NCBI GenBank assembly: GCA_030390025.1
Contig: CM059430.1
Location: forward strand, 75,578,001-75,642,000
Origin: Squalus acanthias
Lineage: Eukaryota
Direction: 5' to 3'
DNA: 64,000 bases
A program made the translations under genes and the position numbers. Each line of letters opens with the position of its first letter. Position 1 is the first letter of the stretch. Positions 2,048 through 61,931 of this stretch are shown here, piece after piece. The notes beneath the pieces are model-generated. The model ran no database searches. It was not told where the DNA came from and was given only the letters and a program-made list of their open reading frames with translations.

Positions 2048-2054
2048 GTAAATT

Positions 2055-15128: not shown

Positions 15129-15245
15129 AAGTTTATGGACACACATCCCTTTACCTATTGATTGTTGGATGTACAGGGAGTGCACTGATATTTCTCGCCC
15201 TCATCACCGTCCTTGGGAGCAGTCGCCAACTCAGTGACTGTAAAG
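15129..15245 (+). CDS. Gene A exon 4: transmembrane (EVYGHTSLYLLIVGCTGSALIFLALITVLGSSRQLSDCK)
   Basis: ttctag acceptor, g|gtaag donor, 117 nt, ~22-residue uncharged hydrophobic segment. Confidence 0.88.
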
Positions 15246-19000: not shown

Positions 19001-19306
19001 TAGCACAATGCAGTTGCTCACTGAGTGCAGAGGAGATTATACTGCTTTTCAGTGTCTAGGATGTATTTGAATTCGAAGGATTGTAATGGTTTTTTATTAC
19101 GCATCACGGTGAATTGTAAGACGCTCTGAACAACCAGAAAAATTGTGCAATTTCAATAATGATATACTGATAGTGATATATTCATTATTCGACTGACATA
19201 TTCGTGATTCTTCAATTTAGCACCAGCCGATCGCACTCTGTTTCATCCAGCGCTCTGCTGACTAATTAAGGTCTTGAGCTAACTGGAAATCGCTTCGATT
19301 TTACAG

Positions 19307-35370: not shown

Positions 35371-36458
35371 CTGCCACTCCCTTTACCGCCGGAGTTCTCT
35401 GGCTCCAGTATGTACGATCCACAGCACGGGTCGTCCTTTCAATGACCAATCTTATAGAAGTTTGCGTCTGATTGCCACCCTGTTCTTCTGTTGTTCAGGC
35501 CACTTTCATTAGATCATTTTCAATGAGAGGAGCTTTGTCACCCACAAGCGTCTGTTGACATGATTTTACTCCGTGTAGCGGTCACGGACTGTTAGATGTC
35601 AATGGATGAATCATGGTGACAACTTCTAGCATATCTCACATTGAACTGTTTGCATGTTGTCGCACAAAATATGTACATTGAGAGACTGCAAACTTCTGTC
35701 GAAAAAATTTATCTACTGGGTGAATAACATCATGTCAGCCTTGGTCACAAAACCAAACCTCTGGTCTTATGGATAATGAGCTCACCGAGCCTAAGTGATG
35801 ACCTGGTGGTGGAAGTTAGCTTCAGGTCTGGCTTCTTATGTCGAGATTCTTCAGTAAGTGCAGTCTCCTCAGACATATCTCTTGAGTGACATGTGGAAGG
35901 ACGATTTATCTGGATCTTATCGTGCTCCTTTGATGGCAAATGAAGTTTGCTTCCCTGTTATGCTCTTCCTCCTGCTCCGCTTAAGACGCTGCAGAGAAGA
36001 ATCCCCTTTGGAAACCCATTTATTGAAGCTTATGTGAATTCGAAGGAAAATATTTCCGCCTACCCCAAAGACCACAGAAAGAGAGATCGAAGGCCGGCTT
36101 GCTTTTATAAATTGCCAACTTATTGGTCGTTCTTGTAGAACCAGTAACGCCTTTTAAAAAGTTACTTCCACCTCGATTCCCGGCTGCAGGTATCGACCCG
36201 AGCGTCAGACGGGTCAAACCTGGCATGAATGACGGCTTTCGAATGGTTGTTGTCATCCTGTAACACCTGTCATTTCCTTAACACCGCCAATAGGGGTGCC
36301 GGTAATTCTTACCACCCCCTCCACTTCTAACAACACGCACACGGGCCGGTATTTCATGATGTCCGATTCCCACCGTTTACCTCCCCCCCAGCCCAGATTG
36401 GACAGGTTTCGCGAATAAATTCAGGGGAAATTCTACACCAGGTTGTCACGCTTAAGTG

Positions 36459-36477
36459 TGACGTAATGCATTTCCGG
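36459..36477 (+). promoter_or_regulatory. Candidate proximal promoter of unit B (ATF/CRE-like TGACGTA and ETS-like TTTCCGG)
   Basis: Both motifs lie 70-90 nt upstream of the ATG and are also present upstream of unit C (40926-40945). Confidence 0.4.
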
Positions 36478-36546
36478 CTCTTCAAAGTTCTAACGAACCA
36501 TCAGCCAGTTCACGGTCTGTCGCTCCGAGTGATCAATTGGTTCAGA

Positions 36547-36601
36547 ATGTTGGCGATTGCTGTACTTCAGTGCCTCTCTGTTCTGGGATTCATGTTCATA
36601 G
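36547..36601 (+). CDS. Unit B exon 1: signal peptide MLAIAVLQCLSVLGFMFI
   Basis: ATG, hydrophobic leader, phase-1 donor G|GTACCT in frame with the V exon. Confidence 0.85.
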
Positions 36602-36771
36602 GTACCTGTTGTTTCTATACATTGCCTTCTCGCTAAAACGTAGAGTTGCTTAACTTCCATTTGATACAACAGGTTACATTGTCCTTTGCACACATTGCCT
36701 GACTCAAATACCCTCGCGCTTTTTCTGTGTAATATTCTCAATAATTCGATTTTGATTTTCTTTCCCGATAG

Positions 36772-37092
36772 GCTCCTGCGAAACCTCGGTCAAAGTGACT
36801 CAGCTCGCTGAAAGCCCGAGCGGAATCACGGGTACAAGCGTTTCCTTACATTGCTCGAATCCCTTCTTTCAAGACGGACCACAGGTGAAGGTATACTGGT
36901 GGAAACAGTGTGATAATAAATATCTAAGCACTGGACCTGATGACAGAAAAGTAACTGGCTCCAAAACTAAAATCAGCGGCTTCCTTCAGATAATCAATGT
37001 GACTGTCCAGGACTCGGGAGAATATTATTGCACTGTCGTCCATCGAGGCAGAATAATTGGAAACGGAACAGGATCCAATTTAACTGTCTCGG
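36772..37092 (+). CDS. Unit B exon 2: V-set domain with germline J-like motif (VSLHC..VYWWK..DSGEYYC..IGNGTGSNLTVS)
   Basis: gatag acceptor, g|gtcagt donor, 321 nt open. Confidence 0.95.
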
Positions 37093-37848
37093 GTCAGTAT
37101 AAAAGAAGCGGCGAATGAGATGCCTGTAACTGTAATATTACACTGCAAATATATTCAGCGGATCAATCATACTTTGGAATCGTTTGCATTCTACGCTGTT
37201 TCGCACTTCGAAGTATTGTTCAGTTATACTTTGAAGCATTTACTTTGGAACTCAAATTCCAATTGTTTTATATATATTAATTGTACTTATACGGAAGACT
37301 GATAGCGTTACATGTTAATTAGCATTTCAATACTGCCCTATTATTAAAAAAAATCGATTGTGCTTTTATTTGTTTGGATAGTGTAAAACGCGTTATATCG
37401 GAGCAACTGCTCCTTATTCACCCTCCCTATTGTCCTTTCCTGTGAAGTGAATGGAATAAAATATCGGTATAACGATCGGCCCCAAAAAGTTATACTAAAG
37501 TTCAAGATGTTAACAGGTTCATTCTAAGATTTAAGAGCACCATCTGTACGTCATTGTCTGTCTTGGTTTGTGAGGACTAACATTTACTCTTTGAATACAG
37601 ATTGGCGGGCTTACAATATAATGATCCATATATTGAGAGTCTTGAAAGCCGAGTGTACATAACAGTTAGTTATTGTGCACTGCTTGGAACCCGAACGACA
37701 AACCCCATATTTTCATAAAGTTCCTAATCTCCAGTAAGTAAGATGTTGACCAGAACCTGAGTTCTAAAGCCTCTCACGCTTGGGAAATTCGAATTGTGTC
37801 GCCAATTGTTATACTGCAGCCCTTAACCAGGTTTTAAATCGGCGAAAG

Positions 37849-38339
37849 TGTAAGACCACTGTTGGGGAGAAAATAGATTCTCAGAGTCTGTGTAAAGTCC
37901 AAAAACACATAGTTTATTGAAAAAGTACTTTGGATGAAGGAGTCAAAGGTCCCGTGATCTAATGTAACATCCTCTCATCTAACTTTTGGTTATTACAGCT
38001 TATATTCAGTATTTCTGGCTACATGCCATCATACATCGATTTTCGACCAATTATATGGTATTACATTAATCACCTGATTATATTTTGCCTTTATCTATAT
38101 TTATTTGGGAACAATCATAAAAGCAGTAACATCTTGCTGTGCTTTTTGAGCATGGGCTAATCCCACAGTCTACTACTGTATGTTATTTGTGATTGGCACT
38201 GTGCCTACGGCTTCGACCTAATTTTGTAAAAGGTCTCTTTCAATACCTTCATTAAACACCGAACCCTCCCTCAAAAGTCTGTCCGGCAGCTGGAATTATA
38301 TCTATTCCTTATCTTGTTTTGCAAAACCTTCACTGCACA
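37849..38339 (-). mobile_element. Possible solo LTR in the unit B V-C1 intron
   Basis: TGTAAG...CA ends and tttatt (reverse polyA signal) at ~37914; no counterpart in the unit C intron. Confidence 0.35.
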
Positions 38340-38868
38340 TGGTTGTATTGCAAATTGTGTAGAAATTGAATTTAACCATTTCAAATTAACTCTTTCAACC
38401 CCCGTTTAAATGTACAGAATATAAATTCAGCAATCTTTCTCAATTGCATAAGTCATATTATTTGCGTCATCCATTGAGCTACATAGAGGGAGAAGCAGAC
38501 TGTGTTCCTTTCCAATATGAAAAGGGACTGTGGTGTATTTTAATGTCCTGAATTTAGATCAGATACATTGAAGAACAATACTTCCTTGTGCTAATTGTTA
38601 AAGTTGTGAAGATGTTAAAAACCTGAAAAAATAACACCGAATAATAACAGAATAAAAGAGAAAATTACATAGAGCAAATGCAATAGAACATTACACAATT
38701 TATCCACAAATCAAGAGGGAAACATGAACATCAGGTTTAGATTTAGAAGATGCCGTTATCTATGTCCCTACTGATAGCGCACAGCGAAAATGTCCTGTCA
38801 CAAATGCAACGATGGGCTGGTAACCTTGAATGATGTCCAAGTAACATTCTTTTCCTGCACTTTTCTAG

Positions 38869-39180
38869 TTCCGCCAACTCCACTGAAAATTGTCTCTCAG
38901 GAACCTGAAACGGATTCACCTGCGCTCATGTCTGTACTGTGCACAACATCTCCCTTTTACCAGCAGAATATCAGCCTCACCTGGTATAAGGATGGAAGCA
39001 AAATTACACCAAGAATAAATAACATTAATCAACCAAACACCGATGGACTATATGAAGCTTCCAGCCGGTTGGAAGAGACGCAGACTGTCGAGACCGGGAC
39101 CGTTTATACCTGCATGGTGTTTCACAGTACCCTCAAAATTCCAGCCACGGTCACCCACACTGTCAGCTTCAGGAACACAG
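38869..39180 (+). CDS. Unit B exon 3: C1-set domain
   Basis: ttttctag acceptor, g|gtaata donor, 312 nt; C..FY(Q)..WYKDG..YTCMVFH. Read-through stop at 39260. Confidence 0.95.
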
Positions 39181-39194
39181 GTAATATTTTATAT

Positions 39195-40468
39195 AGAATC
39201 ATAGAAACTTACAGCACAGAAAGAACCATTAGGCCCGGCGTGCCTGTGCGGGCTCTTTGAAAGAGCTGTCCAAGTTAATCCCCACACCAGCTTTTTCCCC
39301 ATAACTCTGAAAAGTAGTCCTCTTCCAGTACACGTCCAATTGCCTTTGCTAAATTCCTACGGAAACTGGTTCCACAAACCTTTCTGGTAATGCGTTCTGG
39401 ATCCTAACAATACTTCGTGGGCAAATAATTCTCCTCAATTCACCTCATGTTTTTAACCAATAATTTTAATCTACGACCGATGTTTAACGACTCACTCCGT
39501 ACATAACTGCAGGCCCTCATCATTGTTATCATCCTGGTAAACCTCCTCAAACCCTCTTCAAGAACTTGACATCCTTCCGAAATTGTGGTGCTCAGAATTG
39601 GACACAGTACTCCAGCTGAGAACTAGCCAGTAATTTGTCAAGGTTTAGCATGACTTCCTTGTTTTTGCATTCACAGCCTCTAATTACAAATTCAATCATC
39701 CCATGTGCTTAATTAATCACCTTATCATCTTGCTCTTCCATCTTCAAAGATTTGTCAATATGCACCCCAGGTTCACCTGCCTCTGTAAGACCCTCAAAAT
39801 AGAACTATTTCGATTATACTGCCTCTCCATGTTGTTCCACCCAATGTGCACACTTCACTTGTCCGCATTAAATTGATCCAGACATGTGTCTGCCCGTTTC
39901 ACCACTCCATCTATGTCCTGCTGAAATCTTCTACTATCGGAAAAAGACCCATTTATTCCAACACTTTCCTTTCTATCTGCCAACCATTTCTCTATCCAAA
40001 TCAGTACCTCAACCCCAATTCCATATGCTTTAAATTTGCACGCTAATCTCTTATGCGGGACTTTATCGAAAGCCTTCTGAAAGTCCAAATACACCACATC
40101 CACTATTTTATCCCTTATCTAATCTACCAGTTACATCCTCAAAAAATTCCAGTAGATTAGTCAGGCATGATTTCCCTTTTGTAAATCCATGTTGACTTTG
40201 TCCGATCCTGTCACTGTTTTCCGAGTGCTCTTGCTATAACATCTTTTATACTGAACTCTAGCATTTTGCCCACTACCGATGTCAGGCTTACTGGTCTATA
40301 AATCCCTGTTTTTTTCTGTCATTTTTTTTAAATAGTGGGGTTACATTAGCTACCCTCCAATCCATGGGAACTGTTCCAGGGTCGATAGAATTTTGAAAGA
40401 TGACCAGCAATGCATCTATTATTTCTAGGGCCACTTCCTTAAGTACCCTAGGATGTAGATTATCAGGC
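39195..40468 (-). mobile_element. CR1 fragments
   Basis: tagaatcatagaa tail; [16 protein letters not shown] and PDNLHPRVLKE on the - strand. Confidence 0.85.
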
Positions 40469-41014
40469 GGTAGTGCTTTAAAACTAGCAGAATTTCCGAC
40501 AGCACTGTCCGAAACATCTCTCATGTCTGATCTGAAATGGTGAAGGAAACTGAGGGAGAACTTTGGCGCAATCCTCACAATCATCAGCCGTATCTTCGCC
40601 GGACGATCAACGGAAAACCAGCACAAGCGAAGTAACGGCCAGGCTCCGCCAATCTCGGCAGATTCCGCCGGTCTCCCATCAGGGAACTCCGTGGAAATGC
40701 TAAGCGCAGAGCAATGAAATATGGAATGTTCCAGAAGGAGTGCATGACCTTTTCATCCCAGTTTTCCTTAGAATAGGAGGTCCCGCGGCGAGGCCGCTCC
40801 ATCTGTGCGTGTAGAAACTTAAAATTTCGAAATGGAGCCTCTTCTGGCGCATATACAACTGTTGCAACAAATCTGACGAAAGGGACAAAGAGACATGTTC
40901 TGAACACATAGACAGGATTTGACGCTGACGTATTCCAATTTCCGGCTCTTCAACGTTTTTACAAACCACCAGCCAGTTCACGGTCTGTCGCTCCGAGTGA
41001 TCAATTGGTTCAGA

Positions 41015-41069
41015 ATGTTGGCGAGTGATGTACTTCAGTGCCTCTCTGTTTTGGGATTCATGTTCACAG
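41015..41069 (+). pseudogene. Unit C exon 1: signal peptide MLASDVLQCLSVLGFMFT
   Basis: Paralogue of 36547-36601 with the same phase-1 donor. Confidence 0.85.
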
Positions 41070-41240
41070 GTACCTGTTGCTTCTATACCTTGCTTTCTCG
41101 CTAAACCGCAGAGCTGCTTATCATCCATTTGATACAACATGTCTTCTTGTCATTTGCAGACTTTGCCTGACTTACTTACTCACGCGCTTTTTCACCTGTA
41201 ATATTCGCACTAATTCGGTTTTGATTTTCTTTTCCGATAG

Positions 41241-41560
41241 GCTCCTGCGAAAATTCGCTCAAAGTGACTCAGCTCCCTGAAGTCGCGAGCAGCAACACGG
41301 GTACAAGCGTTTCCTTTCATTGCTCGATTCCCTTTTTCAAGACGGACCACCGGTGAACGTGTACTGGTGGAAACAGCGTGATAATAAATATCTAAGCACT
41401 GGACCTGATGACAGAAAAGTAACTGGCTCCAAAACTAAATTCAGCGGCTTCCTTCAGATAATCAATGTGACTTTCCAGGACTCGGGAGAATATTATTGCA
41501 CTGTCGCCCATCGGGGCAGAATAGTTGGAAACGGAACGGGATCCAATTTAACTGTCTGGG
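41241..41560 (+). pseudogene. Unit C exon 2: V-set domain with a 1-nt deletion at ~41333-41337
   Basis: 320 nt vs 321 nt in unit B; cccTTTTTcaa vs cccTTCTTTcaa; splice sites intact. Confidence 0.9.
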
Positions 41561-42541
41561 GTAAGTATAAAAGAAGCGGCGAATGAGATCCATGTGACTG
41601 TATTATTTCACGATTCCAAGAAATTCTCTATTGTGCTTTGTAGGATTCACAATGCAACTTAAATTCCAGTCATTTTATGTGTATATATTCAAATTGCACT
41701 GTTGACTGCTACTCGTTACATGCTAATTTGTAGTACAATATTTCAGCAATAATAATCAAGACGAGCAGCATCGGATTTACCCCAAGTACACAGTAAGCAA
41801 GTATACAACAAGCGTTTGAGTTTTAAATTGCAGTGTCCGTTAAGGATCTGTATAATGGCTGGCGCGTGTATCCGCCGCTGTAAGCACCGATCTTACCCTA
41901 TTTAATGGATTCTTTTGTCTGCGTTGGTTACGGAGGGAAGACTGTTTATATTGGGACTCAGATTCGCATATTTATAATTTAATTCTCCATAAGTTAAGAT
42001 CTTTGATAGCCAAATTGCTAACGGTTAACGTCCGCACTGTGTAGCTGGAACCTCGGACCCCTTATATTAATCATCATTGCAGCCTCCAGCAAATATGGTT
42101 TAGCACCGGATCTTCGTGCCATAGCCCCTTTCACTTGGGTAAATTATACTTCCTCATCAGATGTTATGCTCAACGGGATGGAATTGGTCCACAGCTGTAC
42201 CGCAAAACAAGCGACAATGAGTCGGCAGCCCGATATACACCACACTCAATGTTCTTTCCCATTAGAAGAGAAAATCGGCGAGCTGTAAAAGAGGCGGCCT
42301 ATTCGCTGCAATCCGGTTTTCGCCTGGCTAAAGCAGTTAAAGTTACCGCCGATATAAATTTGACTTTTATGAAGATGCCGTTTACGACTTAGGTACCAAT
42401 AGCGCACAGTGAACACCAGGCCCCCACCACTACCCCAACCCCCCGCCCACATTGTGCTGTCAGGAATGGGCTGGAAGAAAGACGGTGGATTGGTAACCTT
42501 GAATGATGTCCATGTAACATTATTTTCCTCCATTTTTCCAG

Positions 42542-42853
42542 TTCCGCCATCTCCACTGAAAATTGTCTCTCAGGAACCTGAAAAGGATTCAACTGCGACT
42601 CTGACTCTACTTTGCACAACATCTCCCTTTTACCCGCAGAATATCAGCTTCACTTGGTATAAGGATGGAACCAAAATTACACCAAGAATAAATAACATTA
42701 ATCAACCAAACACCGATGGACTATATGAAGCTTCCAGCCGGTTGGAAGAGACGCAGGCTGTCGAGAGCGAGACCGTTTATACCTGCATGGTGTTTCACAG
42801 TGCCCTCAAAATTCCAGCCACGGTCACCCACATTGTCACCTTCAGGAACACAG
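42542..42853 (+). pseudogene. Unit C exon 3: C1-set domain (open frame)
   Basis: tttccag acceptor, g|gtaata donor, 312 nt; CTTSPFYP..WYKDG..YTCMVFH. Confidence 0.92.
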
Positions 42854-43070
42854 GTAATATTTTAGATAGAATCATAGAAACTTACAGCACAGAAAGAGAC
42901 CATTAGGCCCGGCGTGCCTGTGCGGGCTCTTTGAAAGAGCTGTCCAAGTTAATCCCCACACCAGCTTTTTCTCCATAACTCTGAAAAGTAGTCCTCTTCC
43001 AGTACACGTCCAGTTGTCTTTTGTAAATTCCTACGGAAACTGGTTCCACCAACCTTTCTGGTAATGCCAG

Positions 43071-43179
43071 TTGGAAGAGACGCAGGCTGTCCAGACCGGG
43101 ACCGTTTATACCTGCATGGTGTCTCACAGTACCCGCAAAATTTCAACCACGGCCACCCACATTGTTACCTATCCAGTAG
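43071..43179 (+). pseudogene. 3' half of an additional C1 exon (LEETQAVQTGTVYTCMVSHSTRKISTTATHIVTYPV)
   Basis: Homologous to the end of the C1 exons, with its own g|gtaaga donor; fused directly to CR1-derived intron sequence. Confidence 0.88.
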
Positions 43180-43853
43180 GTAAGATTGTAGATCTCAGTT
43201 ATCCTGCAGACAGAACCGTTGCTGCGATTCTCCATGTTGGACAAACTGTCCTTTCTCACTAGTTGTTCTACTCCGTCTCTTTCACCAAGTTTTACATCCA
43301 TAAAGGTGTAGGAATCCTAGTTGCCTTTGTTCACTTTCAATCAGGTTTCATTCTGTTCAAAGAGCTCTACGATTGCCGCTCCTGGTCTCCTGCCTTATTG
43401 GGCGGCTTCTCCTGCAGTCCTGGTTTCACGGCTCAGATGTGGCACTGACTCTTGGGGCAAGAGCGGGCGGTAACTCCGGCCGACAGGTTGTTGCAGAATC
43501 GCTGCCTCCTGCGTCCCACAATCTGTGCTCACAATCTGCTGGAAACTGTAACTGTATCAATCAGCTATTAGACACAGTACAAAGTGAAAAATTAAACGTG
43601 TCACTTTAAGTCGCAATCTTATTATCAACAAGAAACCAGATAAAATTAGTATCGAAAAAATCTGTTTTTCATAACACTAGACTTTCGTGAAAAAAGTACA
43701 AAATGGCAAAGATTGATTTAAAATGTCTCTGTTTTTTGAGACCACGTGTTTGCTGAGAATGCTTTTCAAACAGGAATCCATTACTTATAGATGTGGTTGT
43801 GTACCAATTTGGACATATCCTTAATATTTATATAATTTTCATTAATATTTTAG

Positions 43854-43966
43854 ATCGGGCCAACAGCTGCCGTGTCTTACTGATTTCAGATGTGTATGGT
43901 TTGGACTGGTATTGCTAATGGTGGCTCTCATTATTGCGAAGCGATGTCAATTAAAGAAAAGTAAAG
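43854..43966 (+). pseudogene. Unit C TM exon with 1-nt deletion (DRANSCRVLLIS/CVWFGLVLLMVALIIAKRCQLKKSK)
   Basis: ttttag acceptor, g|gtaata donor, 113 nt; as written it stops early (..ISDVYGLDWYC*). Confidence 0.85.
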
Positions 43967-44661
43967 GTAATAAATCATTTGTTTCATTTTTTTAAATTCT
44001 GGAAGAGGATTTAATAAAGATTACCTGCCGATTGCATATAATTAGAAAGATATTGCACCTCGAAACGGGCCTTTCAGCCTAAACAGTGCTTATCATCCAG
44101 CAGTATCTAATCCCATGTGGCCATCCTCTTCATTTATCTCCATTTCCTTCCAACACCCAGCCAACCTATTCTTAAATATTGGCATGGTCTCTGATTCATC
44201 TATTAACTTCGGTAGTGCATTCCACATTTTCACAACACTCTGTGCAAAAAGGTTTCTCCTCCTCTCTTACATTCAATCCTATATCTCTATAGGCTCGTTC
44301 TAGACCCTTCAATCACTGGAAACAGTCTAGGGTAATTTTGGCTATGGTGTAAAATTTGCGATATTGGATCAGTCCGATTTTACTTCATTGGAAAGAAAAA
44401 TCGGGCGAGGAGTATAATGGGCAGCCGATCTCATATCGTCATTTTTACGCTATCGCCAAAATTATATTTATCCAACCTATCTCATCCTTCATAATTGTAA
44501 ACACGTCTAATGACCCCATAACTTTCTCTAGTCTGACGAAACAGTCGCAATTTTCAAAAGGTGGTGCAGAGGGGAGTTTATTTGTGTACTGGACAGTTCA
44601 AGGGGCTGGTATTCTGTCACAGGAAGAGAACAGCGATGTACTACTATTACAACCAAATCAT

Positions 44662-45686
44662 GGGCTAAAAATTCGGGGGTTTAACATCACCCTTTACCCG
44701 CAAAAACCTGCCTAATGTGGTGAGGGGCGGGCGGGAAAGCAAGAGGTGCTTGCCAGAAGGAGGATAACATACAAGGATACCAGCACTTTGTAACCTTTCT
44801 GCCCCGCCATTGGCCAGGGCCTCAGCCATGCTCCTGCCAAGAATGCCCTTCACTTTCTCCTCCAAGGGGGTGAGGTGAGGGTAAGAATGGGAGATGTGCC
44901 TCATGATTGGTACAGGTTCCTGGTAGATGAGTGATCGGTGGGGGGAGTTTTGCATTGAGAAGTGTGTGATGCTAGTGATACAGTTGGTAGGAGAAGGCTT
45001 TTGAAGATTAATTCACTGACCTTGACCAGGGGTCTGATTTTATGAGTTTCTTTCGGCAATGGAACCAGGTGGTGGGGGCGACAATGCTGGCAGTGATCTG
45101 GTCCCACATCCTTCTTTCTGGATGGCCTCCTGGCCCCTGTGGGTAGAGAACCTCTCCTGCAGTGTTCACCCCTTACACAAAGCTGGAATGCTGCTTGTGA
45201 GACGCTGGGTGCCCCTTCCCTGGCATGCTGGGCCATTTGTGTTTGTGCTGAAGCACTTTTCCCATTTTTGGAGGTTCGGAAGGGAATTCAGCTTGAAGAG
45301 CTTGAGACTCCCATTTGAGATTCAAAATAATGTTATTTTTTTAAAGTCAGTAAGGTCCAAAAACTGATTTATTTCACTTCATGTTTATTTTTGTTAGTTC
45401 AGAAAGCATTGCCTTTTTAATTTCCCTCAATGCCTAGCGAACTCTATTGCCTCGCTTCCAGATGCTGGTAGAATCGGGAACGCTCCTCCTGGACGGGAAC
45501 TTCGACTTCCATGCCGGCACTAACGCCACCAGGAGGGTAGTACGCGGTAAATTAGTGCTGGGCTAAAAATCTTAAGCCCCCCAGGGCGAATTTTTCTCTT
45601 GTAGCGCTTCGTCTATTTTCAGCGACTGGTAACCCGGGGCCGCCCTGACACCGGCAGTTCTGGTGACGGCCACGATTATTTAGCCC
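44662..45686 (-). mobile_element. Non-autonomous Harbinger element with partner-gene remnant
   Basis: TIRs gggctaaaaattcg / cgattatttagccc; homologous to 16045-17892. Confidence 0.75.
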
Positions 45687-46097
45687 TATACGTCTTAAGA
45701 TAGGAGTGCGCTCTCCTCACCGGCCCCCGCACAGCTTACTAAATGAACGCAAAATGCTACAACTCGATAATTTGATAGAGTGATATGAAGTAAATAGAGT
45801 GGGACGAGGCTCAGGTGGAGTATAAACACCGGCATAGAGTTGTGCGGCCGAATGGCCTGTAATGTGCTGTGAATTTTTTATAATTCTATGTAATCTTGAA
45901 TATGGATTTGCATCACTATTGCTGCAGTCTTGGGTTCGGATATAGAACTGTCGCAGCTAACAATTCGTGAACATGTGATAGTGAACATAATTTTAAATTT
46001 TACATTAAATCTACCAGTTGTGTCGTAATTAGGGGCACAATCGCGGATTAAATGATAAATGATGCGTTGTAAAATATTGAACTCCATTCATTACCAG

Positions 46098-46141
46098 GAC
46101 CCGAGAACAATGCGGAGACACCAATCCCTGCTGAACAGCCG
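46098..46141 (+). pseudogene. Unit C candidate cytoplasmic exon 5 (GPENNAETPIPAEQP)
   Basis: ttaccag acceptor, gtctgt donor, 44 nt phase 1-0. Confidence 0.45.
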
Positions 46142-47086
46142 GTCTGTTTATTTCATTGATCCTAACTCATGTCACATGTAAAGATGTAACATTATTTTCA
46201 GAATCAGCTTTAAGCGTTTCGATCAATTTCATGCAAGAACATTTCCTGCCTTATTCCAAAGCTCCAATACTCCAAAGCATTTGCCTCCAATACCGTGTCT
46301 GGAAAATTCTCCCAAATATGTCGGAGTCTTTCAAGGAAGTATTTTCCTTATATCTGTTCTCGATTTATTTCCCCTTCACATCGTCTGCTCCTCGGCCAAG
46401 ACTGGAGGAATAATCTACTCTACAATATCTAAATCATTGAAAATGTTACATATGTTACGGGATTCTGAACCACATTATATACAGTTTGGGAAGATTCAGC
46501 GCCTCGAAACTTCCTCCTATTTCACCTTATTTACATTTAGGATCAGCTTTGTTCTTTTTCTTCTTTCATTCCTGGTTATATATCCAATAATTCTATTAGC
46601 TGTTAAGGATCTGGATATTAAAAGTGACCTGACCATGGTGAGACCCAGAACCTTTCTAATCGCTCTGTGCTGATTTACTTCCATGTATTGTATAATTGGT
46701 GCACCAATGTTTGGACTGTGTATAAAACTTCACATTTACTGGTATTAAACTTCTTAAACCATCTCATCGATCGCGCTTTTTTCAGCCACAATCGGGAGCT
46801 CTAAACCTGTTTAACTTTGATTGTTGTGGTCAGTGAAGAATAGGCCCGTTCTTATCCCTTACTTTCGCTGTGATTTAACTGTAACGGACGGCTAATGCGA
46901 TCGGGTTTCACGAATCGTTAAATCCCGTGTCACAGGAGCTTTTTTTTGTTTGTTAATTTAAATGGCACGAAAATCAGGTCCCGCCGACCGGCGAATTACC
47001 CGTCCGCGCTCCCTGTAAGAAACTCTGAACCGGGAGTCCACTCAATGGAAGTAACAACAGAAATAAATAACTGTTTTGTATCTCAG

Positions 47087-47167
47087 TTGCTGCAGAGAGA
47101 CGCGGATGCAAAGGCGCCCTCCGATGCAACACCATTGACCAGTTCCAATAAAAACCTCCAGGGATAA
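47087..47167 (+). pseudogene. Unit C candidate terminal exon (LLQRDADAKAPSDATPLTSSNKNLQG*)
   Basis: ttttgtatctcag acceptor, phase 0. Confidence 0.4.
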
Positions 47168-47952
47168 ACATTAAAGGAGAGACAGCACCAGGCTGGGAAT
47201 CAGAACAAAGAGACACAGATCGCCCACAATTAAACAAATAATGCATCACGGTGCAACAAATAGGATGAATCTGGTTTTAGTAATCGGGGAGTTTTTATAA
47301 TGGACGCCCGATTCTCAACGCCAGTTTTAGGCCGGGCAGCATGTTGGATGTCCAATCCACTGTGTGTAGTCTGGGCTGGTTATAGCAGCTCCGGGCCTTT
47401 TTATTGTTACGTTCTTGTAATTCCATTAACATAAGCTCTATTCCAAAGTTACCCGCTATTAACAGAATTTACACATGACAAGTATTAACATTATAAGTTG
47501 AGACTGTTTATAGACTATTTTACTCATTTGCATTCAGCAAGCTTAAACTACTTGTAATAATTTTTGAAAACCGTGTGTAGTCCAATCCGTCCTGACACCT
47601 GGGTGTGTTAAATTTGGAGCAAACTATCAGTTAATGTTCGAGAAATGTGCAGAAGTAAATTTCAATCTCAAACATGGTTTCAGAATATTGCTTAGAAATG
47701 TTCTGGTTCTTATGTGACTGTCCTTTCCTAAAAATACCTAACAGAATAAATCGCAGAGAACCTGGCGACAAGAAGAATTATTTTACCCTTTAACACATTT
47801 CGCTTTCAGGATAAAGATTTTCTGGTGAGCTTTACGCGATGGAATGTCTAATGGTTCTTTTATAAATCTGTTTACCATATTGTTGCTCAAAGCGCACACA
47901 GAAAACGTATCCGCAATTTTTAAATACAAATATCAGTTAAACCATTATACCA

Positions 47953-48086
47953 ATCCAAAAACAAAATACTGCGGATGCTGGAAATCTGAAATAAAAACAG
48001 AAAATGCTGGAAATACTCAGCAGGTCAGGTAGCTTCTCTCCACAGATGCTGCCTGACCTGCTGAGTATTTCCAGCATTTTCACTTT
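47953..48086. mobile_element. Short Penelope-derived hairpin insertion with 16-bp flanking direct repeat
   Basis: ttaaaccattatacca at 47937-47952 and 48087-48102; perfect 30-bp inverted arms at 48000-48029 / 48052-48081. Confidence 0.85.
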
Positions 48087-48270
48087 TTAAACCATTATAC
48101 CAGTTGTCGACATCCTGGAGACATGTTTGTTGGACAGCTTGGGGAGTTAAGGGTTAACAGTCAAACTTCTTTCCATCTTAAAGCAACAAGCTTTCCAATA
48201 TATAAACAGCATGACTTTGAAGTGTCGTAAGGTGAAAGCACGGCTTGTCTTCTGATATGTAAAGTGCTTG

Positions 48271-51200
48271 TGTAAGGAAATAAGTGTTAGTAATAAAATG
48301 TAATTTTAGTTTTAGTGTAATAAAACAGGGGTAGCGTGTCCTTTTACTAAAGATAGCAGTAGGTAAAGGAAGTCTTGTTTAAGGGAAGTGGTTCTGAGGC
48401 AAACAATTGCCAACTGTTTACTTAGATAACCTGTTCTCAGAGAACTTTGGAAATAGACAGATCATTTTGACATCTTCCTTTGATGTAGTCAAAATATCGT
48501 GTATAAAGGAGGATGGCTTTCAACAGTTTGTCAGCGTGTACTCGAAAGATACAGAAGTCGAATATCCACTCTCTGTATACAGTTAAAGACCGATCACCTT
48601 TACTGTTTATCAATTAAGTCTGTTCCGTATACTCCACTATGAAGTCTCGTGCTTAATTGAAACGTATTATTGTGAACCAGAGGAGAAAGGAGGTTGCTGT
48701 GAACTTGTCCGATGAATACGCGGACGGTGAGTATGTATTAGTATCGATAGTGCGTATAACTATCTGCTGGGAATCGCATTCTAGGGGATAGGAAGGCATC
48801 AGACAAAATAGTCGATTCCTGACCAAGTTGGTGCCTTTGAAATTTTCTGACTGGATTAAAATTAAGGGTGGACCTCACAGTTTTTCGAAAGAAATTTTAA
48901 ACAGGAGCTGGGAGGAGATTGTGTAGGCACTGGAGAATGTGTGTCTGGAGAAATGAAAATATAGTAGACTGCAAATGTTTTGTTTCAGCAGAAACTAAAT
49001 GAATGGAGACAGAGAACATATTTTTTGCAAGGGCTCTGTCTGGGTATCGGCACATTGTGGAGAAATAATGCTCAGACGCAGGCTGAAAATAGGGTCTTGA
49101 AGGTAGAAATAGAGAAGCATAAAGAGGCATTTGATGAAGTCAGTGTACGCGCTGTGCAAGCTGTGAATTCCTTCCTGGCGAGTCACGATGCTGTGGTGCA
49201 CATATGTCAGGAGAGATTGGAATTGGAAGATAGAGCGCAGTTTAGAAGTTATGGTCGCCAGACTACAGTTCGAAAAGGCACTGGAAAAAAGTGTGCCGAC
49301 AGAGACAGAAAGAAATACAAAAGCTGGAACAGAGGCGTAAACAGACAGTGGCCTTGGGCTACTGTAAGAACATTCTGAGCTGTTGCTCATTAATTCAGTG
49401 AAGGAAGCCGTGGATGAGAAACTGATGAAGAAACAATTACAGATTAAAGCAACAGGAAAAGCTTGTTTAGACGCTTCTGTTTCTGTAGGAATGGGCTGCC
49501 CCAGAACTGATGAGGTATTCAGTGAAAAGCTAAACTGTGGGAGTTGTAAGCATGGTCTAAAGGGTTGCAGAATGGGAGTTGGAATGTGGAAAATGTTGAG
49601 AGAGGGAGTTATAGCAGTTCTGAAGAGTGAACTGAGAAAAAGATTGGGACTCTGGACTGAATATTTAGCGTATCCTTAACCCTTCACTCTAAGTTGTTTC
49701 ACCCCTCCCATATACCAGAGAAGAGTTAAGAACTGTGCAGGAGGTAACAGGCTTGGTTAAGGACACGGACTGTGAGCTTGAGATTTTGAATCAGTACAGA
49801 ATGGGTTTCAGTGGAAAGCGTCAGAAATTGAAAATTGGTGTAAGGTAAAAATAATAAATAGTTTTTGATGGAATAAAGAAGAAACGGGATGCTCCTGTCT
49901 CTATTCTACTGTTCTACATTTTTTTTGCTTTCAGTGTGGATGTTACTGTCTTTTTTACCAAACATGTGTTACTGTGGCTGTGGCTCCTCCCTCTTTTTCA
50001 AGCTGGAATGTGTGTTGACCTTAAGATATTGGTTTGAATTACATTTGAGTTATTGTGGTTAACTTACCTATTAAATTGTTAAAACCAGTCATTTATTATG
50101 GCCATGGTGAAATTCTGGTTATTGTAAATTGCGTGAAAGCTTCTAGATCCAGACATGAGGCAATCACATCGACAACGATGTATACATTTCTGACCAATTT
50201 CAGTACTCAATGCTTTGAGGTGATTTTTAATCATCTTAATGGTACTGGAATGTGTGACCAGAAGCGATAAAAAGGGTTCCATTCTATTGCTACGTGAATG
50301 ATAATGGAGACATCCTGTAGTTGGATTGTACTTCTGAATTGTTTCATAGAATGTTTATAGTTGTAAAAGTAACAGTTTTTTTACTTGGTAAAAGTTTTTT
50401 AAATTATTTGAAAGCTGTAAGAAGTTGTGTGACACATTCTGACATTGATTGATGTCTGGGTTTGTCTTCTTTTGAAAAGAAAAAAGTGAATACTTTTCAC
50501 AAGCAGCTGTGTGTTTTTGTTACTTTCTGGTTTCAGAATAATTGATTTAATTAACTAAGCAACAACTTTTGCATTACTGACTGTAAACATTTTGGACATT
50601 TTTACATTTAAGTTTTTTTTAATTTGTGTGAATGCTTCCCCGCGCTGATAGAAGGGATTAAGAAATTGACAAATGAAAAACTAACCCATTGGGCTGTCAG
50701 GAGCCAAATTGATTTTCTGTTTTTTCTTTAAGCAGATGACCATATGAGTGTTGATATTGGAAGATTAACAAGAGGGGTTATTTGATATAAAATGATTTCA
50801 AGGTGTTACAGAGTTTAAACTTTGCTGGAAAGTGCAGTGGGAGCTCCAATAATGTTCAGAATTTAAGTTCTTACCTGCAGACATTGTTGGATCTTAAATG
50901 TCGCAGCGTAATGACAAAATTGGAATTAAGACTTTAAACTATTGGGACCGTTTGTTATTCTCCAAGATCCAAAGCTCGAGGGGGGAAGATAAAGGAATTA
51001 CCTACAAAAGCAATTGTTAATTTTGTTTTTTGTTAAATCACGAAGCCTGGACATAATTTGTCAGTGAAAGTAAGTCTTGTTTAAGGCTAATGGCTCTGAG
51101 GTAAACAATGCCAAACTGTTTACATAGATAGTCTGTTTGCAGAGTATTTGGGGAAATAGATAAGTCATTTTACATTTTCCTTGATGTAGTCAAAATGTGG

Positions 51201-51621
51201 TGTATAAAGGAGCATGGTTTTGAACAGTTTGTCAGAGTGTACTCGAAAGATACAGAAACTGAATATCCAATCTCTGTTTACAGTTAAAGACCGATCACAT
51301 TTACTGCGTATCGTAATATAGCAAGTATAGGAACATAAAAACAGGAGTAGGCCATTCAGCCCCGCAAGCCTGTTCCACCATTCAATTAGGTCATGGCTGA
51401 CCTGGATCTTAACTTCATCTACCCGCCTTGGTTCCGTTACCCGTAATACATTAGCCTAACCAGGATCTCAATTTTCTCCTCATAACTGTCATTTCTAATC
51501 CCTGGCATCTCGGTGGATCCATTCTGTACGCTCTCCGTATGACTTGAATGCCTGAGCAGAAGTAACGTGCTTATTGTAAACGTCTTGTTGTGAACCAGGG
51601 AAGAAAGGAGGTTCTCTAACA
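48271..51621 (+). mobile_element. Internally deleted LTR retroelement (ERV-like)
   Basis: Diverged direct repeats ~48271-48704 and ~50988-51621 (the latter split by a CR1-tail insertion at ~51320-51520); purine tract gaggggggaa just before the 3' repeat; ggtgagta donor after the 5' repeat; no pol seen. Confidence 0.7.
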
Positions 51622-51706
51622 ACAATGCTTACCCACAAATCGTTTAGAACCAATTGTTTAAATCGTGTAATAATGTTGTTCATAAATATTGTAACAACCT
51701 GATTGT

Positions 51707-54700
51707 GAAACAGGATTTGTTGCTATAGTTTGGTTCCTTCAGTTCATGCAAGATCAGCTGCACAATAAAATATTTCAGAAACTTCAGATTAAAAACCTAA
51801 GCTTGGCGTCAGGAGGTTATTGTTTTCCTATTCATCTCCCCTTCTTTATACATTTGGCGCTGCCCTGCTCTCTGGCCTTACCTTTCATTTGAGAACATCG
51901 GTATCTGCTGACAACACTCCAAACTCATCTCACTGAGAAGTGCAAGTTTTCCAAAACGTGTAAATATCAAAGATCTCAATAAAGAGATCCGGGCGGTGAG
52001 AAACTGATCTCTCCCCACCCTCCACCCCCTGTCCCACGTGGGCTATAGATTTGTCTAAGTTCTGGAGACATGTCGTTCATGTATCCATATACTAACCAAT
52101 GAGCAGTATTGTGAGCGAGATTACCAGACTCTCAGGGATGTTTAATTTCCGTTGCACTATACAAACAGGCAAGATTAGTTCGATGGATGTAATTTGATAT
52201 TCAACAGATTGTAGGGCATCAAGATTTCTGTGGCCTGCCGCTCATTAATCAATCCTAACTGCCGAACAGGGAATAAGAAAGAATGTGGCTGAGAGTAATG
52301 AAGTTGCAAATACTCAATAATGGGTCATATGTATTGTGGACCTGAAATTACGGTGGGAGGCTTCCCACGGGTGAATACCTCTGAACTGCAAGAAGTTGTG
52401 TGACACAAAATCCATACTTACCTGATGGCCCCCGGACATACGAAGACTGGCGCTCCTGGGCCTGCAAGAGTACGCCTGCGTAAAGGCCCATGTATCCCGG
52501 TTGTGCATGCGGTTCGGAACCGTTCTAGGTATCACGTGGGCCGGCCCGACCAATCAAGAACGGGGTTTCCATTATGCTTATGTTGATTCCATTTACGTAC
52601 GGAATCCCCATAAGCACAATAGGAATCACGTAAAAATTACATTTTCACACAACCTAAGTAAAACTAAATTTTCACTCGTTTAAAATTAATTAAAATTCAA
52701 TTTATTTAAACATATAAAACTTTTTTTTTAAATAAATGCAATATTTTATAGCGGCCGAAAATAACCGAAACAAATATTAAACGTTTTTTAATGTTTAAAT
52801 GATTTTTAAAATGTTATTTTAATATTTATTTAAACATGTACACTGGTAAAATAACGAAGAATGCCTGCTTTTACGAGGCGTAAGAGTTTCATGGGCATTT
52901 GTTGGGCAGTAGTGGGGCAAATAGTCCAATATTGTGCCAGCGAATGTCCATTTCCTTCAGATTCATACGATCTGTCAAGCTGAAACTTGACAAGTTCCGG
53001 GTTTTCATGCATGCGCGGTTAACCAGTGGCCTGTAGATAACGCCAGGACAAATTTCATCCCTTAATAATCCGAAGTGAGATAAACCGGGCTTTCGATACA
53101 CTATCGGACAAAATCACAATTAGCCACTGAAATCAACAAGAAAGCAGGATAAAGGCACGGTAATGTAGAAACACATTTTTCAAGCATGAAAACATTAAAC
53201 AAAGGTCAGCACTTTTTAATTTGTTTCTTCAAACTATACCTTAAATGTAAAAGCACTAAAAAAGCAACAATGAATTAAAATGTATCTGATCTTTTAGGTC
53301 ACGATCTTGTTGAAATGTGCAGTGTACTGCCGCATATTTATACATTTCATCTAAATATTGTAAGTGCCGAGATCACCCGTTACTTGCTGATTTCTGCATG
53401 TGCAGGGGGCGGGTCGATTTTACTGGTGTTGGCTCTCATCATTGGGAGGCGATGTCACTTAAGGAAAAATAAAGATAAATTGGCCCAAAGTATGCCGTCG
53501 GTATGATGGTGAACTGGCAGTGTTCGCCGTCATTCCGCCTTTAAAACTGACCGCAACTTCTGGATTTGGCACGTGCGCAGGCGGAAATACCGAAGTTGCG
53601 GTCAGTCATTGACAGCTCCCACACAGGCTACGCTGTGCCCACCCCCTCAACAGACCCAGCAATCCTTTTTTTCAGCCAAATCAGGGAAATTCATAAAAAG
53701 TTCGGCTCTTCTGCAGTAACTATGCTCTTAATTTCCCACTGAAAGTTAAACCCAATGGGATTAGGTGAAACTGGGGTTTTGACTGCATTATTACTGCTAA
53801 ACAAATGTTAAAGGACACTAAAACTAGTTTTCATTTTGTATAATATGAAATTATTCCATTTTAATATAAAATGAAAGCTTAAAAATATTTCAAAAATTGT
53901 TTTGTAAAGTTTCTCCATCTTTATTTCAGGTTTTCAATTCACCATCTGAGAGCCCCAATCTTTGTTTTCCTCCCTCTAACTATTTTTTTAAAGTTAGAAT
54001 TTTAAGAGCTTACTCACTTCCTTCTTCGCTGTCTGAGAATTATGTGTTTTCATTGGCTGCTCAGACAGCTAGTAGACCTTACAGCATTTCGCACAAGGGG
54101 AACCCCACTACAGTTCATTGATTTTAATTGCACGATGGGAACCTCGAAGTTCTCGACACATGGATTGCAATATCCTTGTGTGAAGCGTATTCGGGGCCAG
54201 CAGCGAATGCCTTCACTTCACTGCTGACCACAAATTAAGGAATTATTTATTATTTCTACTAAAGTAAGCACACATTTCAAAACTGGAGCTGGAACTTCCC
54301 TTTTCCATGTAGAGAGAAAGTTAGGTGATTGTAAATGAACATGTTTTCATCCTAAATTATTTCAAATGTAAGGATATACATAAGAGCATTTTCATCTATT
54401 AAATGCCATAATTGGCCCCATTTTACTCTGTCGCTCTAAAGATACATACAGAATTAGTGCAGAGTGAGTGCAGCACTTACACAACACACACATGGAAACA
54501 TTTTTCAATATCTGTGACAGTCGGTCAGAGGCATCCGAATCACAAGTCACCTGTGGATTGTGAAACAAGGTGTTGTTTAAAAGATACCATCAGCTGCAGT
54601 GAATAGTAAAAAGAAATCTGCTTTAACCTGTTGGACCCAGCGTATGTTGCGACCTCATAGCAACGTAGTCTATAATTCTGTACCCATTAACTGACACTAA

Positions 54701-56405
54701 CTAAACTAACTAAATCTAGAAAACGCGAGTTGATATCCCACAACCCCAATTGAGAATTTCAATTCAGTTTAATAAAACATGTAAACAAAAAGCTGGTATT
54801 AGTAAAAGTAACAACAAAGCTGTCGGATTGGCTTAAAACCCAACTGGTTCACGAATGTCCTTTGTGGTAGTAAACCTGCCGTCCGTACCCGGTTTGGACT
54901 ATATGTGACTCCAATCCCATACAATCTTGGTCGACTCTGAACTTCCCACTGAAGTATCCTTTCAAGCGATGGGCAATAAATGTTGGTCTTGTCAACGATG
55001 TCCGCATCCCGAGAATGAAGAAGAAACACACAGAAATTCATGGCTGGCCTTACAAGTATACGCCAGTGTGCGCCACTCACAGATACCTTTTATTTATTAT
55101 GCAGCGGTTGAACACGAAAAACGGCGAGAAATCGGCATACCCTTCAGTTCCCTCATTTACGCATCATAGCATCCAACTGAACTTGGACAACCCCAATGTC
55201 TTTGCCTCCAGCTCCTTGGTCGGAATATGCTGCTTCGCCGCAGCAGCCGGACGACCGAGCAACCATGGAGAAGCTTACCGGAAAATTGCAGGTTATAATG
55301 CTTAATTTCACAAAGAACATAAATGCTTTTGTCACTTTTTGCTGCAGCACGTATATAAACCTTGCCAGTTGCAGGTTATTACCTCAGATTAGTCCTACCA
55401 GTGGAACGACAAGAATGAACTATCTTCCCTTATATTTGAGTTAATTGGACTGATTCTGCCAGTAGGGCACTGAAGGTGTTGGTATGTTCTGCCGGCCGGG
55501 AGGCTGTGGGCCCGTAGTGACTGAATTTGCTTCCAATAATTCAATGAATAGACGTTCGACCCACGATTCTCTAGCGAGCTGGCATCGTTCTGTTCAGGCA
55601 GCAGCGAAACACGGTATCTGTCCTAGCATAGAATTATAGAATCATACAGCATAGACGAAGCCTATTCGGTCCATCGCGTCTGTGCTGGATCTTTGGAAAA
55701 GCTTTCCAATTGCATCCACTCACCTGCTCTTTCCCCATATCCCTGCAAATTTTTCCTTTTCGAATATATCCAATTAACTTTTTAAAGATAGTATTGAATC
55801 TGCTCAACCACCATTTCAGGTAGTGCATTCCAGATTATAACAAATCGCTGGAGTTTTGCCTTTTATCTTAAATCTATGGCCTCTATTTACTGATCACACT
55901 GCCAGTGGTAACAGTTTATTCTGATCTACTCTATTAAAACCCCACATAATTATGAACACCTCTATTCCATCTCCCATTAACCTTTTCTGTTATAAGGAGA
56001 ACAAACTGACTTTCTCTCATCTCTCCACATAACTGAAGTCCCTCAACCCTGGTACCATTCTGGTGAATATCCTCTGCACCCTCTCCAAGGTCTTGACATC
56101 CTACCTAAAATTTGGTGCGCAAAATTGGCTACAATACTCCAGCTGAGGCCTAACCATTGATTCATAAAGGTTCAGCATATCTTTCTTCCTTCTGTACACT
56201 ATGGCCGGAATTTTCCGTTGCTGAGCGTGAGGGTTTGGGGGCGGATCGGCAGTTAAACTCACGGAAATTGACAGCGTGTTGGCAACCCACCATCATCCCG
56301 TTGACTTCTGCATTTAACTTGGGTGCATTTGGAGATGCACCACGCAACCGCTCGGGAGAGGCGTGCGACCTCATTCAAGTACTTAAATGCTTGACGAGGG
56401 ACCCT
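51707..56405 (+). repeat. Segmental duplication, copy 2
   Basis: Colinear with 1-4810. Confidence 0.95.
53298..53506 (+). CDS. Orphan TM exon, open as a terminal exon (GHDLVEM..YLLISACAGGGSILLVLALIIGRRCHLRKNKDKLAQSMPSV*)
   Basis: cttttag acceptor at 53297 is phase-1 in frame; the donor has been lost (aaag|AT), so the frame runs to TGA at 53504-53506. Confidence 0.6.
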
Positions 56406-56835
56406 TAAGTGGGTTTTTACCAGCAGCTTCTGGCTTTATCTTCAAGAGCATGGGTTTCATGCAACTCTGGAACCTCGCTTGTGAAGAGGAGGCGGAAGCT
56501 CACTAGCCATTGTGCGAGTCCATTAATTGACAGCTGGGAAAATCACATTGCAAATGATTACTGGACAAATGGAAAGGATCTCGCTGACTCCATTTTGTGC
56601 AGAGATTTTGCTGTCAGCAGTTTGCAGGTCATTTCTGCAACCTCGGAATCCACTCCCACCACATTGCTAGTCACTAACATTGAGGGATTGGGCATCTGAT
56701 CTTCGCTTTAATGGCCATCTATTACATCAGCATGGGTGCCACTTATGCTTTCACACCTTGGACCTCAGAATCGAACCGAGATGAGCCCCAGCACCAACAA
56801 CACCAGCCACACCAGCAGCAGCAACAATCACAACA

Positions 56836-57132
56836 GGCGGCGGACCTGGGTGGAGCGGCAGCGGCGAGGCGGAGCTGAGAAAAGGCGGCGGCGACCAGGT
56901 AGGCCCACAGAGGTGGCGGACCTGGGTGGAGCGGCTGCGGCGAGGCGGAGCTGAGAAAAGGCAGCGGCGACCAGGTAGGCCCACAGAGGCGGCGGACCTG
57001 GGTGGAGTGGCTGCGGCGAGGCGGAGCTGAGAAAAGGCGGCGGCGACCAGGTAGGCCCACAGAGGCGGCGGACCTGGGTGGAGCAGCTGCGGCGAGGCGG
57101 AGCTGAGAAAAGGCGGCGGCGACCAGGTAGGC
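56836..57132 (+). repeat. 76-bp GC-rich tandem monomers (~3.9 copies) forming the CR1 5' end
   Basis: Units start at 56836, 56912, 56988 and 57064. Confidence 0.95.
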
Positions 57133-57403
57133 TTACCAATCTTCGCCCCCAGAGTGGGAGAGAGAGAAGTAGAAAATAATCAAATTGTGACGTCACCAGA
57201 AACCAGGTAAGTGATTGGTTGGTGAGTATTTCTCTTTTTCTCCTTTTTTCCATACTCAAATTCTGTGGTTTATAGTTTCTAGCGTCTCTGTGGTGTAGCG
57301 GGGACTGCTGTTAAGCAAGGGCCCTTGAGTATTTCATTTAGTTGAAGTGAAATTGGTGGGATTCAATTAGTTGAATTTTAATTAATTAATTAAAGGGTAA
57401 GTC

Positions 57404-58354: not shown

Positions 58355-58357
58355 AGT

Positions 58358-61338: not shown

Positions 61339-61931
61339 GTTTAGATGATCAGCCATGATCTCATCGAATGGCGGAGCAGGCTCGAGGGGCCGAATGGCCT
61401 ACTCCTGCTCCTATCTTCTATGTTAACATTCTCCTCACCGAACTGAGGCTCAGGCAATCGCGCCATATCGAAGCAGACATCTGCAGCTTGCTGGAGCTTC
61501 GCCTGCTGCCCAGAGGACCTGGTGGACAGATCTTACCAGTGGCTGTCAAAGTCACCACCGCCCGCAACGTCTTCGCCTCAGGCTCCTTCCAGGGATATGC
61601 AGCAGACATTTGGAGGATCTCGCAGTCGGCCACCCACAGATGTATCACCCAGGTGAATGATGGCATGTTCGAAAGTCAGCCAATTATATCGACTTTGCCA
61701 CTGATGGAGCCAGTGTTACTGAGCGGGCGCTCTGCTTTGCGACTCTGGAAGGCTTCAAACAGGGGGAGGGCATCATCGATTGCACACATGTTGCCATCAG
61801 GGCAACCCATCATCACCCACGATTGCTTGTGAACCACAAGGGCTTCCACTCCCTCAAAGTGCAGCTAGTCTACAACCATAAAAAGATCATCATGCATGTG
61901 TGCGCCAGATTCCCTGGCAGATTTCATGATT

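Follow-up and report, generated by a model that had tools for sequence, protein, structure and literature searches.

How should an immunoglobulin (Ig) receptor gene be read when its ectodomain is intact and it has no membrane anchor of its own? This question is raised by a 64,000-nucleotide (nt) stretch of Squalus acanthias DNA (NCBI GenBank assembly GCA_030390025.1, contig CM059430.1, positions 75,578,001 to 75,642,000 of the forward strand), hereafter the window, in which positions are counted from the first letter. The window holds three Ig-receptor units, A, B and C, all on the plus strand. The initial annotation described unit B as a leader-variable-C1 (L-V-C1) cassette without a transmembrane (TM) exon, whose product might be secreted, doubled or anchored through TM exons lying further downstream. 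The present study suggests that B is probably the intact ectodomain of a member of a tandem SIRP-like family, that its TM and tail exons were likely lost in a rearrangement of two CR1 copies near 39,937, and that it yields at most a secreted V-C1 decoy instead of acting as a TM-borrowing cassette. Whether B gives a real secreted protein or is a silent or decaying copy is about evenly balanced.

Unit B and its flanks comprise the following features.
36459-36546, plus strand: upstream segment common to B and C, 88 nt, 92% identical to 40927-41014, the homology stopping there
36547-36601, plus strand: leader exon, open, phase 1
36772-37092, plus strand: unsplit VJ-type V exon, open, phase 1, Pfam V-set 42 bits
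38869-39180, plus strand: C1 exon, open, phase 1, Pfam C1-set 48.5 bits, with Gln in place of the FYP proline
39181-39260, plus strand: read-through tail of 26 amino acids (aa), mostly from an antisense CR1 3' end, with a TGA stop at 39258-39260
All GT/AG splice sites of the leader, V and C1 exons are present and all are in phase 1, bearing out the earlier description of an intact cassette. Reading through the C1 donor gives a product of 255 aa, the length and stop position (39260) that had been predicted. CR1 open reading frame (ORF) 2 from 59.0-61.3 kb matches 39283-40548 on the minus strand, indicating that the tail region is antisense CR1, again as proposed. Searches with family TM profiles, at both the protein and the DNA level, revealed no TM exon in 39181-41014, in agreement with the view that B lacks one. 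As candidates for a hidden TM or a usable alternative exon in this interval, three pyrimidine-rich phase-1 acceptors were rejected, yielding just 1-17 aa, as were the best hydrophobic 19-mers, which are CR1-derived. The statement that only transposable-element (TE) fragments separate B from the next leader holds for the CR1 pieces, whereas about 40549-40926, which is present on a low-depth DNA contig (X1 record 1), has no match elsewhere in the window and its transposon origin is not shown. The 88-nt segment upstream of the B and C leaders may represent 5' untranslated region or proximal promoter. TGACGTA and TTCCGG motifs, which we take to be CRE/ATF-like and ETS-like, lie at its edge (36465-36480; 40926-40947).

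Judged by its sequence, B is a member of a tandem family of non-rearranging VJ-C1-TM receptors of cartilaginous fish with SIRP- and UrIg-like features: it has the unsplit VJ-type V exon and the one C1 exon homologous to the family, and no TM of its own after C1. A search with a full-length member recovered 50 proteins at E up to 1e-10 and a profile search 73, of which 68 were named chondrichthyan entries at E < 1e-57, followed by a gap to E 7e-22. The members of each species lie mostly on one chromosome as tandem copies, and they share the same exon plan with 45-76% identity in the V domain (e.g., Heterodontus XP_067906077-86, Scyliorhinus XP_038663088/89, and Callorhinchus XP_007902899); the nearest named relatives of the window's receptors are those of Heterodontus, with 71-76% identity across the V domain. 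Among 132 entries with the family C1 (unnamed-protein library included), a TM follows C1 in 112 and is lacking in 20, counts that include isoforms as well as automatic models and do not equal numbers of independent genes. Six of the 20 TM-less entries have tails beginning G-K, G-N or G-M, as expected from read-through of the donor. Among the TM-less forms modelled in relatives, Heterodontus XP_067906085 skips the TM and joins the same tail exon, Scyliorhinus XP_038663088 and Callorhinchus XP_007902899 read through the donor, and XP_038663089 probably uses a TE exon. RefSeq names the relatives automatically as SIRP-alpha-like, Ig lambda-like or NCR3LG1-like, and many of their tails carry LTYAAL / TEYAQL-type motifs of the immunoreceptor tyrosine-based inhibitory motif (ITIM) type, which resemble those of SIRP-alpha. 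The solved structures closest to a full-length member are UrIg2 (9dmx, E 2.3e-20) and then SIRP-alpha (E 3e-14; third with the profile), and the nearest ESM Atlas clusters are SIRP-alpha (0.96-0.97). NCR3/NKp30 and Ig light chain, considered from their general features and RefSeq names, were set aside in view of the unsplit V, the own leader and C1, and the ITIM-type tails of the relatives.

Behind the C1 donor of B, two unlike CR1 fragments are joined.
39193-39936, minus strand: 3' part of an old CR1 long interspersed nuclear element (LINE), 59-68% (about 62%) like the reference copy at 59.7-61.4 kb
39937-40468, minus strand: younger CR1 fragment without its 3' end, 85-90% (about 87%) like the reference, its left edge being the putative breakpoint
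Identity to the reference steps at 39,937, compared with a flat profile along the length of five other copies set against the same reference. CR1 insertions normally retain their 3' end; because the younger piece lacks it, a breakpoint is placed near 39,937. This junction may be the one that cost B its TM and tail exons, or these exons may never have been copied. Such a rearrangement scar would explain the missing TM of B, a point against TM sharing.

The next unit downstream, C, bears the traces of exchange with B.
41015-41069, plus strand: leader exon, from the exon search and family profiles
41241-41560, plus strand: V exon of 320 nt, frameshifted by the lack of 1 nt in a T run near 41333
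42542-42853, plus strand: C1 exon, open
42854-43065, plus strand: copy of the post-C1 intron and CR1 end of B, 96.7% identical, with the read-through stop of C at 42904-42906
43066-43179, plus strand: last third of a second C1 exon (C-prime), with its own GTAAGA donor and no acceptor, meeting the CR1 piece at a microhomology of 2 nt
43854-43966, plus strand: TM exon with a 1-nt deletion, phase 1, with a premature stop at 43916-43918 ahead of the hydrophobic stretch
47087-47151, plus strand: tail or last exon with two acceptors (47087, 47096) and AATAAA at 47147; its ortholog is the final exon of Heterodontus XP_067906084/85
The partial second C1 exon and the tail exon at 47087/47096 were absent from the initial annotation. 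In a receptor tree of 43 rows, with V-less and multi-unit models mostly excluded, B and C are sisters (support 100/100), and a separate clade (98/96) unites five paralogs of Heterodontus. Yet the tail exon at 47 kb specifically matches one Heterodontus gene, with scores of 82 vs 28 for the next and 59 vs 31. As far as these sequences tell, ectodomains homogenised and tails not is the pattern of ectodomain conversion, which is known in paired-receptor clusters (accessible part of PMC2832619). After the C1 donor, B and C differ at 7 of 213 nt, vs 24 of 169 nt in intron 1 (Fisher p 1.2e-4). This tract, consisting of the C1 3' end and 213 nt of intron, has a more recent common ancestry than the other introns and ends at the 43,066 hybrid junction within the older C1 exon of C, suggesting a later copy event from B into C. 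Over V and C1, nonsynonymous (dN) and synonymous (dS) divergence between B and C are 0.078 and 0.054, a difference that is not significant (p 0.58). Of the 87 entries that a simple pattern matched, 84 keep the FYP proline replaced in B; B also has an extra Cys at 65. B is probably a copy under relaxed selection.

Evidence on transcription comes from the sequencing contigs of 4 of 13 listed runs. X7 is taken as RNA by guess, belongs to one study under another species label, and has no cover in the bins with the B leader (36300-36890) or the TM at 43854 (43392-43982), gaps that carry no weight as evidence. X7 record 28 starts at 42541, the predicted V-to-C1 splice point, with an 82-nt overhang, and extends 17 nt beyond the C-type C1 donor. 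Record 27 covers the V of C with 3 substitutions, one extra letter and a 52-nt overhang ending at the predicted leader-to-V splice; the V of B differs from the letters of C in this region by 22. The splices in both records are deduced from the contig end points. A C-type gene with a full-length V is thus likely transcribed in a relative, and the extra letter lends support to the earlier suspicion that the frameshift in the V of C may not be general. Moreover, the tail of catshark XP_038663088 ranked first among 127,804 window positions exactly in register at the C1 donor of C (11 of 32 residues identical, ungapped), the next best position being another CR1 end, and the CR1 end behind the donor therefore appears to be an old insertion shared with catshark. 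This CR1 3' end near the donor (39193; 42866) would then be a very old insertion, usable as a phylogenetic marker. The proposed secreted V-C1 with a CR1 tail gains from the catshark register and from the contig running past the C-type donor: read-through RNA of a C-type gene would exist in a relative, and a secreted form is plausible. Against the proposal, the tail keeps neither its frame, which is shifted by 1 nt in B, nor its length, at 37 aa in catshark, 26 aa in B and 17 aa in C, and no polyadenylation hexamer lies nearby.

The course of events favoured here is that unequal recombination and gene conversion would have homogenised the ectodomains of B and C and cut B short, that the TM and tail exons of B would have been lost at the junction of two different CR1 copies near 39,937, and that B would then read through its C1 donor to give at most a secreted V-C1 decoy, with its stop and tail taken from the antisense CR1 end. 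Several observations count against it. B retains 688 nt free of stops and frameshifts, together with its splice sites and the shared 88-nt segment, which equally fits a functional gene; B-derived and C-derived changes number 17 vs 10 and are not different (p 0.25), and a dN/dS near 1 is compatible with hidden positive selection. The register of the two CR1 parts is off by about 160 nt, so that the crossover was not a clean homologous one, and the 39,937 junction could be later than the TM loss. The first polyadenylation hexamer after the B stop is ATTAAA at 39867, 607 nt on, with none close to the stop. Furthermore, the B-to-C arrangement is unconfirmed by any listed read or contig spanning both, and the read-through evidence is one contig of depth 4.5 under another species label, 9 letters from C and not assignable to B, whose RNA may be pre-mRNA.

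Two other explanations bear on the same observations. It is possible, though rather unlikely, that B is an old dedicated secreted member, in which donor read-through into the antisense CR1 end supplies the stop and tail in the manner of the Ig heavy chain (IgH) secretory tailpiece and has been kept since before the catshark split; the CR1 end may then have served as a secretory tail for very long. The CR1 end at the same donor offset in catshark would be expected under this explanation, but a shared old intronic CR1 requires no function, and neither the frame nor the length of the tail is conserved. Both catshark models found for the gene (isoforms X2 and X3) are TM-less; RefSeq read-through models are automatic, however, and isoform X1 lies outside the models found. 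The extension of X7 record 28 beyond the donor and the secreted-only character of UrIg (accessible part of PMC12227049) also fit, against which stands the distance of the first hexamer. An assembly artefact, with the TM of B lost by CR1 collapse or misjoin and the deletions of C being base-calling errors, is very unlikely. Both deletions of C do lie in short homopolymers (the T run near 41333, and AA to A near 43888, compared with ISRCVWFG / ISRCAWGG in relatives) and, as the C-type contig with its extra V letter also allows, may be errors or alleles; errors in C would nevertheless restore gene C and not supply a TM to B. The frameshifts are absent among the 12 of 70 indels listed from DNA contigs, which does not settle error versus allele. 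In X1 (DNA of another individual), the C1 letters at 38913-38962 agree with neither B nor C at 4 of 6 sites, which suggests a third copy or a divergent allele, hence copy-number or haplotype variation and more copies or alleles than assembled. Collapse at 39,937 itself is unlikely, since the sequences joined there are only about 60% alike and would not normally be collapsed by assemblers; the structure of the B-C differences and of the hybrid junction at 43,066 is also what recombination would predict.

The most far-reaching proposal of the initial annotation was that promoter-bearing ectodomains such as B and C splice to common downstream TM and tail exons, and its membrane-bound product depends on the second of two relics.
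1937-2047, plus strand: paralogous relic of a TM exon, with TG as acceptor and an out-of-frame AG upstream, within a block 86% like 51707-56406
53298-53506, plus strand: TM relic with the family TM exon at 53364-53474, open only from an upstream AG at 53298 to a stop at 53504-53506
Exon sharing of this kind is highly improbable. The downstream acceptors are indeed all in phase 1, including that at 43854 (though frameshifted inside), but Ig-superfamily exons are normally in phase 1, and compatibility is therefore uninformative. Joining the B donor (39180) to 53298 stays open and gives the predicted 298 aa, the only candidate B product that is not soluble. What did not stand is the use of 53298 as the family TM acceptor: the homologous acceptor (53362-53363) is AA, the donor at 53475 is AT, and the frame runs through 66 nt of intron, whereas chance alone leaves 26% of nearby 66-nt windows open and the corresponding AG is out of frame in the paralogous relic at 1.9 kb. 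The 53298 relic has no donor, no tyrosine motif and no charged TM residue, and the 14.1 kb join would skip four nearer acceptors (41241, 42542, 43854 and 47087) plus the AATAAA at 47147 in the polyadenylated last exon. Splicing of B to 47087/47096, a route not foreseen earlier, gives soluble products of 250/247 aa like Heterodontus isoform X2. The proposed V-C1-C1 product (B spliced to C1 42542) is phase-compatible, with 350-354 aa, and the proposed V-C1-V-C1 product is helped by a V frameshift that may not be general; neither would be membrane-bound, because the TM at 43854 carries a 1-nt deletion and stops before the hydrophobic stretch. As assembled, both products would need strong nearer sites to be skipped or the V of C to be repaired, and would end TM-less. 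Clustered protocadherins and UGT1A share constant exons, but no intact common TM exon set was found downstream of B and C, the TMs there being frameshifted or splice-dead, and unit A has a TM to itself. No junction from 39180 occurs among the joints listed (15 of 288, repeat-dominated, contigs only). Relatives nearly all have one TM per gene; multi-unit models make up just 4 of 132, all automatic predictions, including V-C1-C1-TM in skate XP_032892405, V-C1-V-C1 in Callorhinchus XP_042196355, and V-V-C1. These multi-unit models in skate, chimaera and catshark (P0016, P0020, P0027, P0029) show V-C1-C1 with near-identical C1, V-C1-V-C1, C1-V-C1 and V-V-C1. We give hardly any credence to a combined scheme in which own-promoter VJ-C1 cassettes splice across units to 42542, 43854 (in in-frame haplotypes) or 47087 and also use an ancient antisense CR1 secretory tailpiece. 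If true, such cross-unit reading would be a protocadherin-like, splice-based diversification of antigen-receptor-like proteins that do not rearrange, and would include a switch between membrane and secreted forms like that of IgH. Proof that exons are shared between units would establish a new route of diversification, but the sequence argues against such sharing.

With B preferred as a truncated member that is at most secreted, its position relative to known systems can be stated. Most members of the family carry a TM of their own, often together with two to four tyrosine motifs, and B has neither. The V-set and C1-set ectodomain, the paired-receptor logic and the ITIM-type tails of relatives resemble SIRP; an ITIM tail or a DAP12-type charged TM residue is absent from B, which has no tail. 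SIRP is V-C1-C1 (accessible part of PMC12975943), in contrast to V-C1 in B, with V-C1-C1 in 1 of 132 family entries. The family is called SIRP-like and not SIRP because the two C1 domains of SIRP are not found, and the three or more C1 domains of UrIg are lacking too. UrIg and UrIg2 are likewise non-rearranging shark proteins with a single-exon VJ domain followed by C1 and with exon gene conversion, but they have three C1 domains (UrIg) and nine or more (UrIg2), compared with one per unit in B, which lies within a multigene ITIM-receptor cluster (accessible part of PMC12227049). The window contains no flanking genes that would place B relative to the MHC or the antigen-receptor complex. An open leader and Ig exons, no TM, and conversion-like similarity to a neighbouring receptor place B with decoy-type copies. 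KIR3DP1, for example, presumably lacks TM exons. Together with the TM-less CEACAM/PSG genes it exemplifies how a recombining cluster of Ig receptors can hold a copy that has no TM and is either silent or a secreted decoy (accessible parts of PMC2832619, PMC6558367 and PMC7516082). In the KIR cluster, pseudogenes and transposons promote recombination (PMC2832619, same part), and bat CEACAMs are secreted by donor read-through into the intron (PMC6558367 and PMC7516082, same parts); the donor is mutated in the bat genes and intact in B, and KIR and CEACAM sequences are unrelated to B. TM-less copies are thus a routine outcome in Ig-receptor clusters, and B would be an ordinary member of a birth-and-death cluster. 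PRARP is a V-C1 protein with an inhibitory motif, and NCR3 is V-only with a charged TM. They resemble B, by description and not by sequence comparison, in the unsplit VJ-type V with a G-x-G motif, and no named PRARP sequence was present among the family search matches. PRARP and NCR3/NKp30 are listed as VJ genes (accessible parts of PMC10751288 and PMC11599192). The literature search revealed no description of the family or locus, with key subscription papers outside reach, and the supplements of PMC10751288 and PMC12227049 may list family genes. A chondrichthyan-wide tandem VJ-C1 family with SIRP-like tyrosine tails, found only as automatic annotations, bears on antigen-receptor origin.

Elsewhere in the window, the first unit is complete through its TM.
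10805-15245, plus strand: unit A, intact L-V-C1-TM paralog (L 10805-10850, V 11044-11355, C1 14356-14664, TM 15129-15245)
Its layout is the normal one-gene-one-TM arrangement, and it is 78% like Heptranchias XP_067853498. A profile search for its tail exons was without result, bar a single weak candidate near 19304 (E 0.26). Across the whole window, the family profiles for the TM, at both the protein and the DNA level, revealed just four such exons, at about 1.9, 15.1, 43.9 and 53.4 kb. Profiles of the family cytoplasmic exons had no match in the window, leaving the TM relics at 1.9 and 53.4 kb without tail exons in view, and a profile search found no tyrosine-motif exon there. The two relics lie one in each copy of a duplicated block (1-4810 vs 51707-56406, about 86% identical); the ancestral TM acceptor was lost by a different change in each copy (TG, AA), and the second copy has no preceding V or C1. 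A near full-length CR1 with both ORFs occupies 57400-61424, tail to tail with an inverted CR1 at 61947-64000 that is 77% alike. Compared with three other copies over about 320 nt, the young CR1 contains a dense A>G cluster at 60640-60790: A>G changes number 25, 30 and 41, and G>A changes 4, 9 and 6. The cluster could be either the imprint of ADAR-like hyper-editing that became fixed when the element inserted or an artefact of base calling. In addition, tandem repeats are present at 18515-19007 and 56835-57132.

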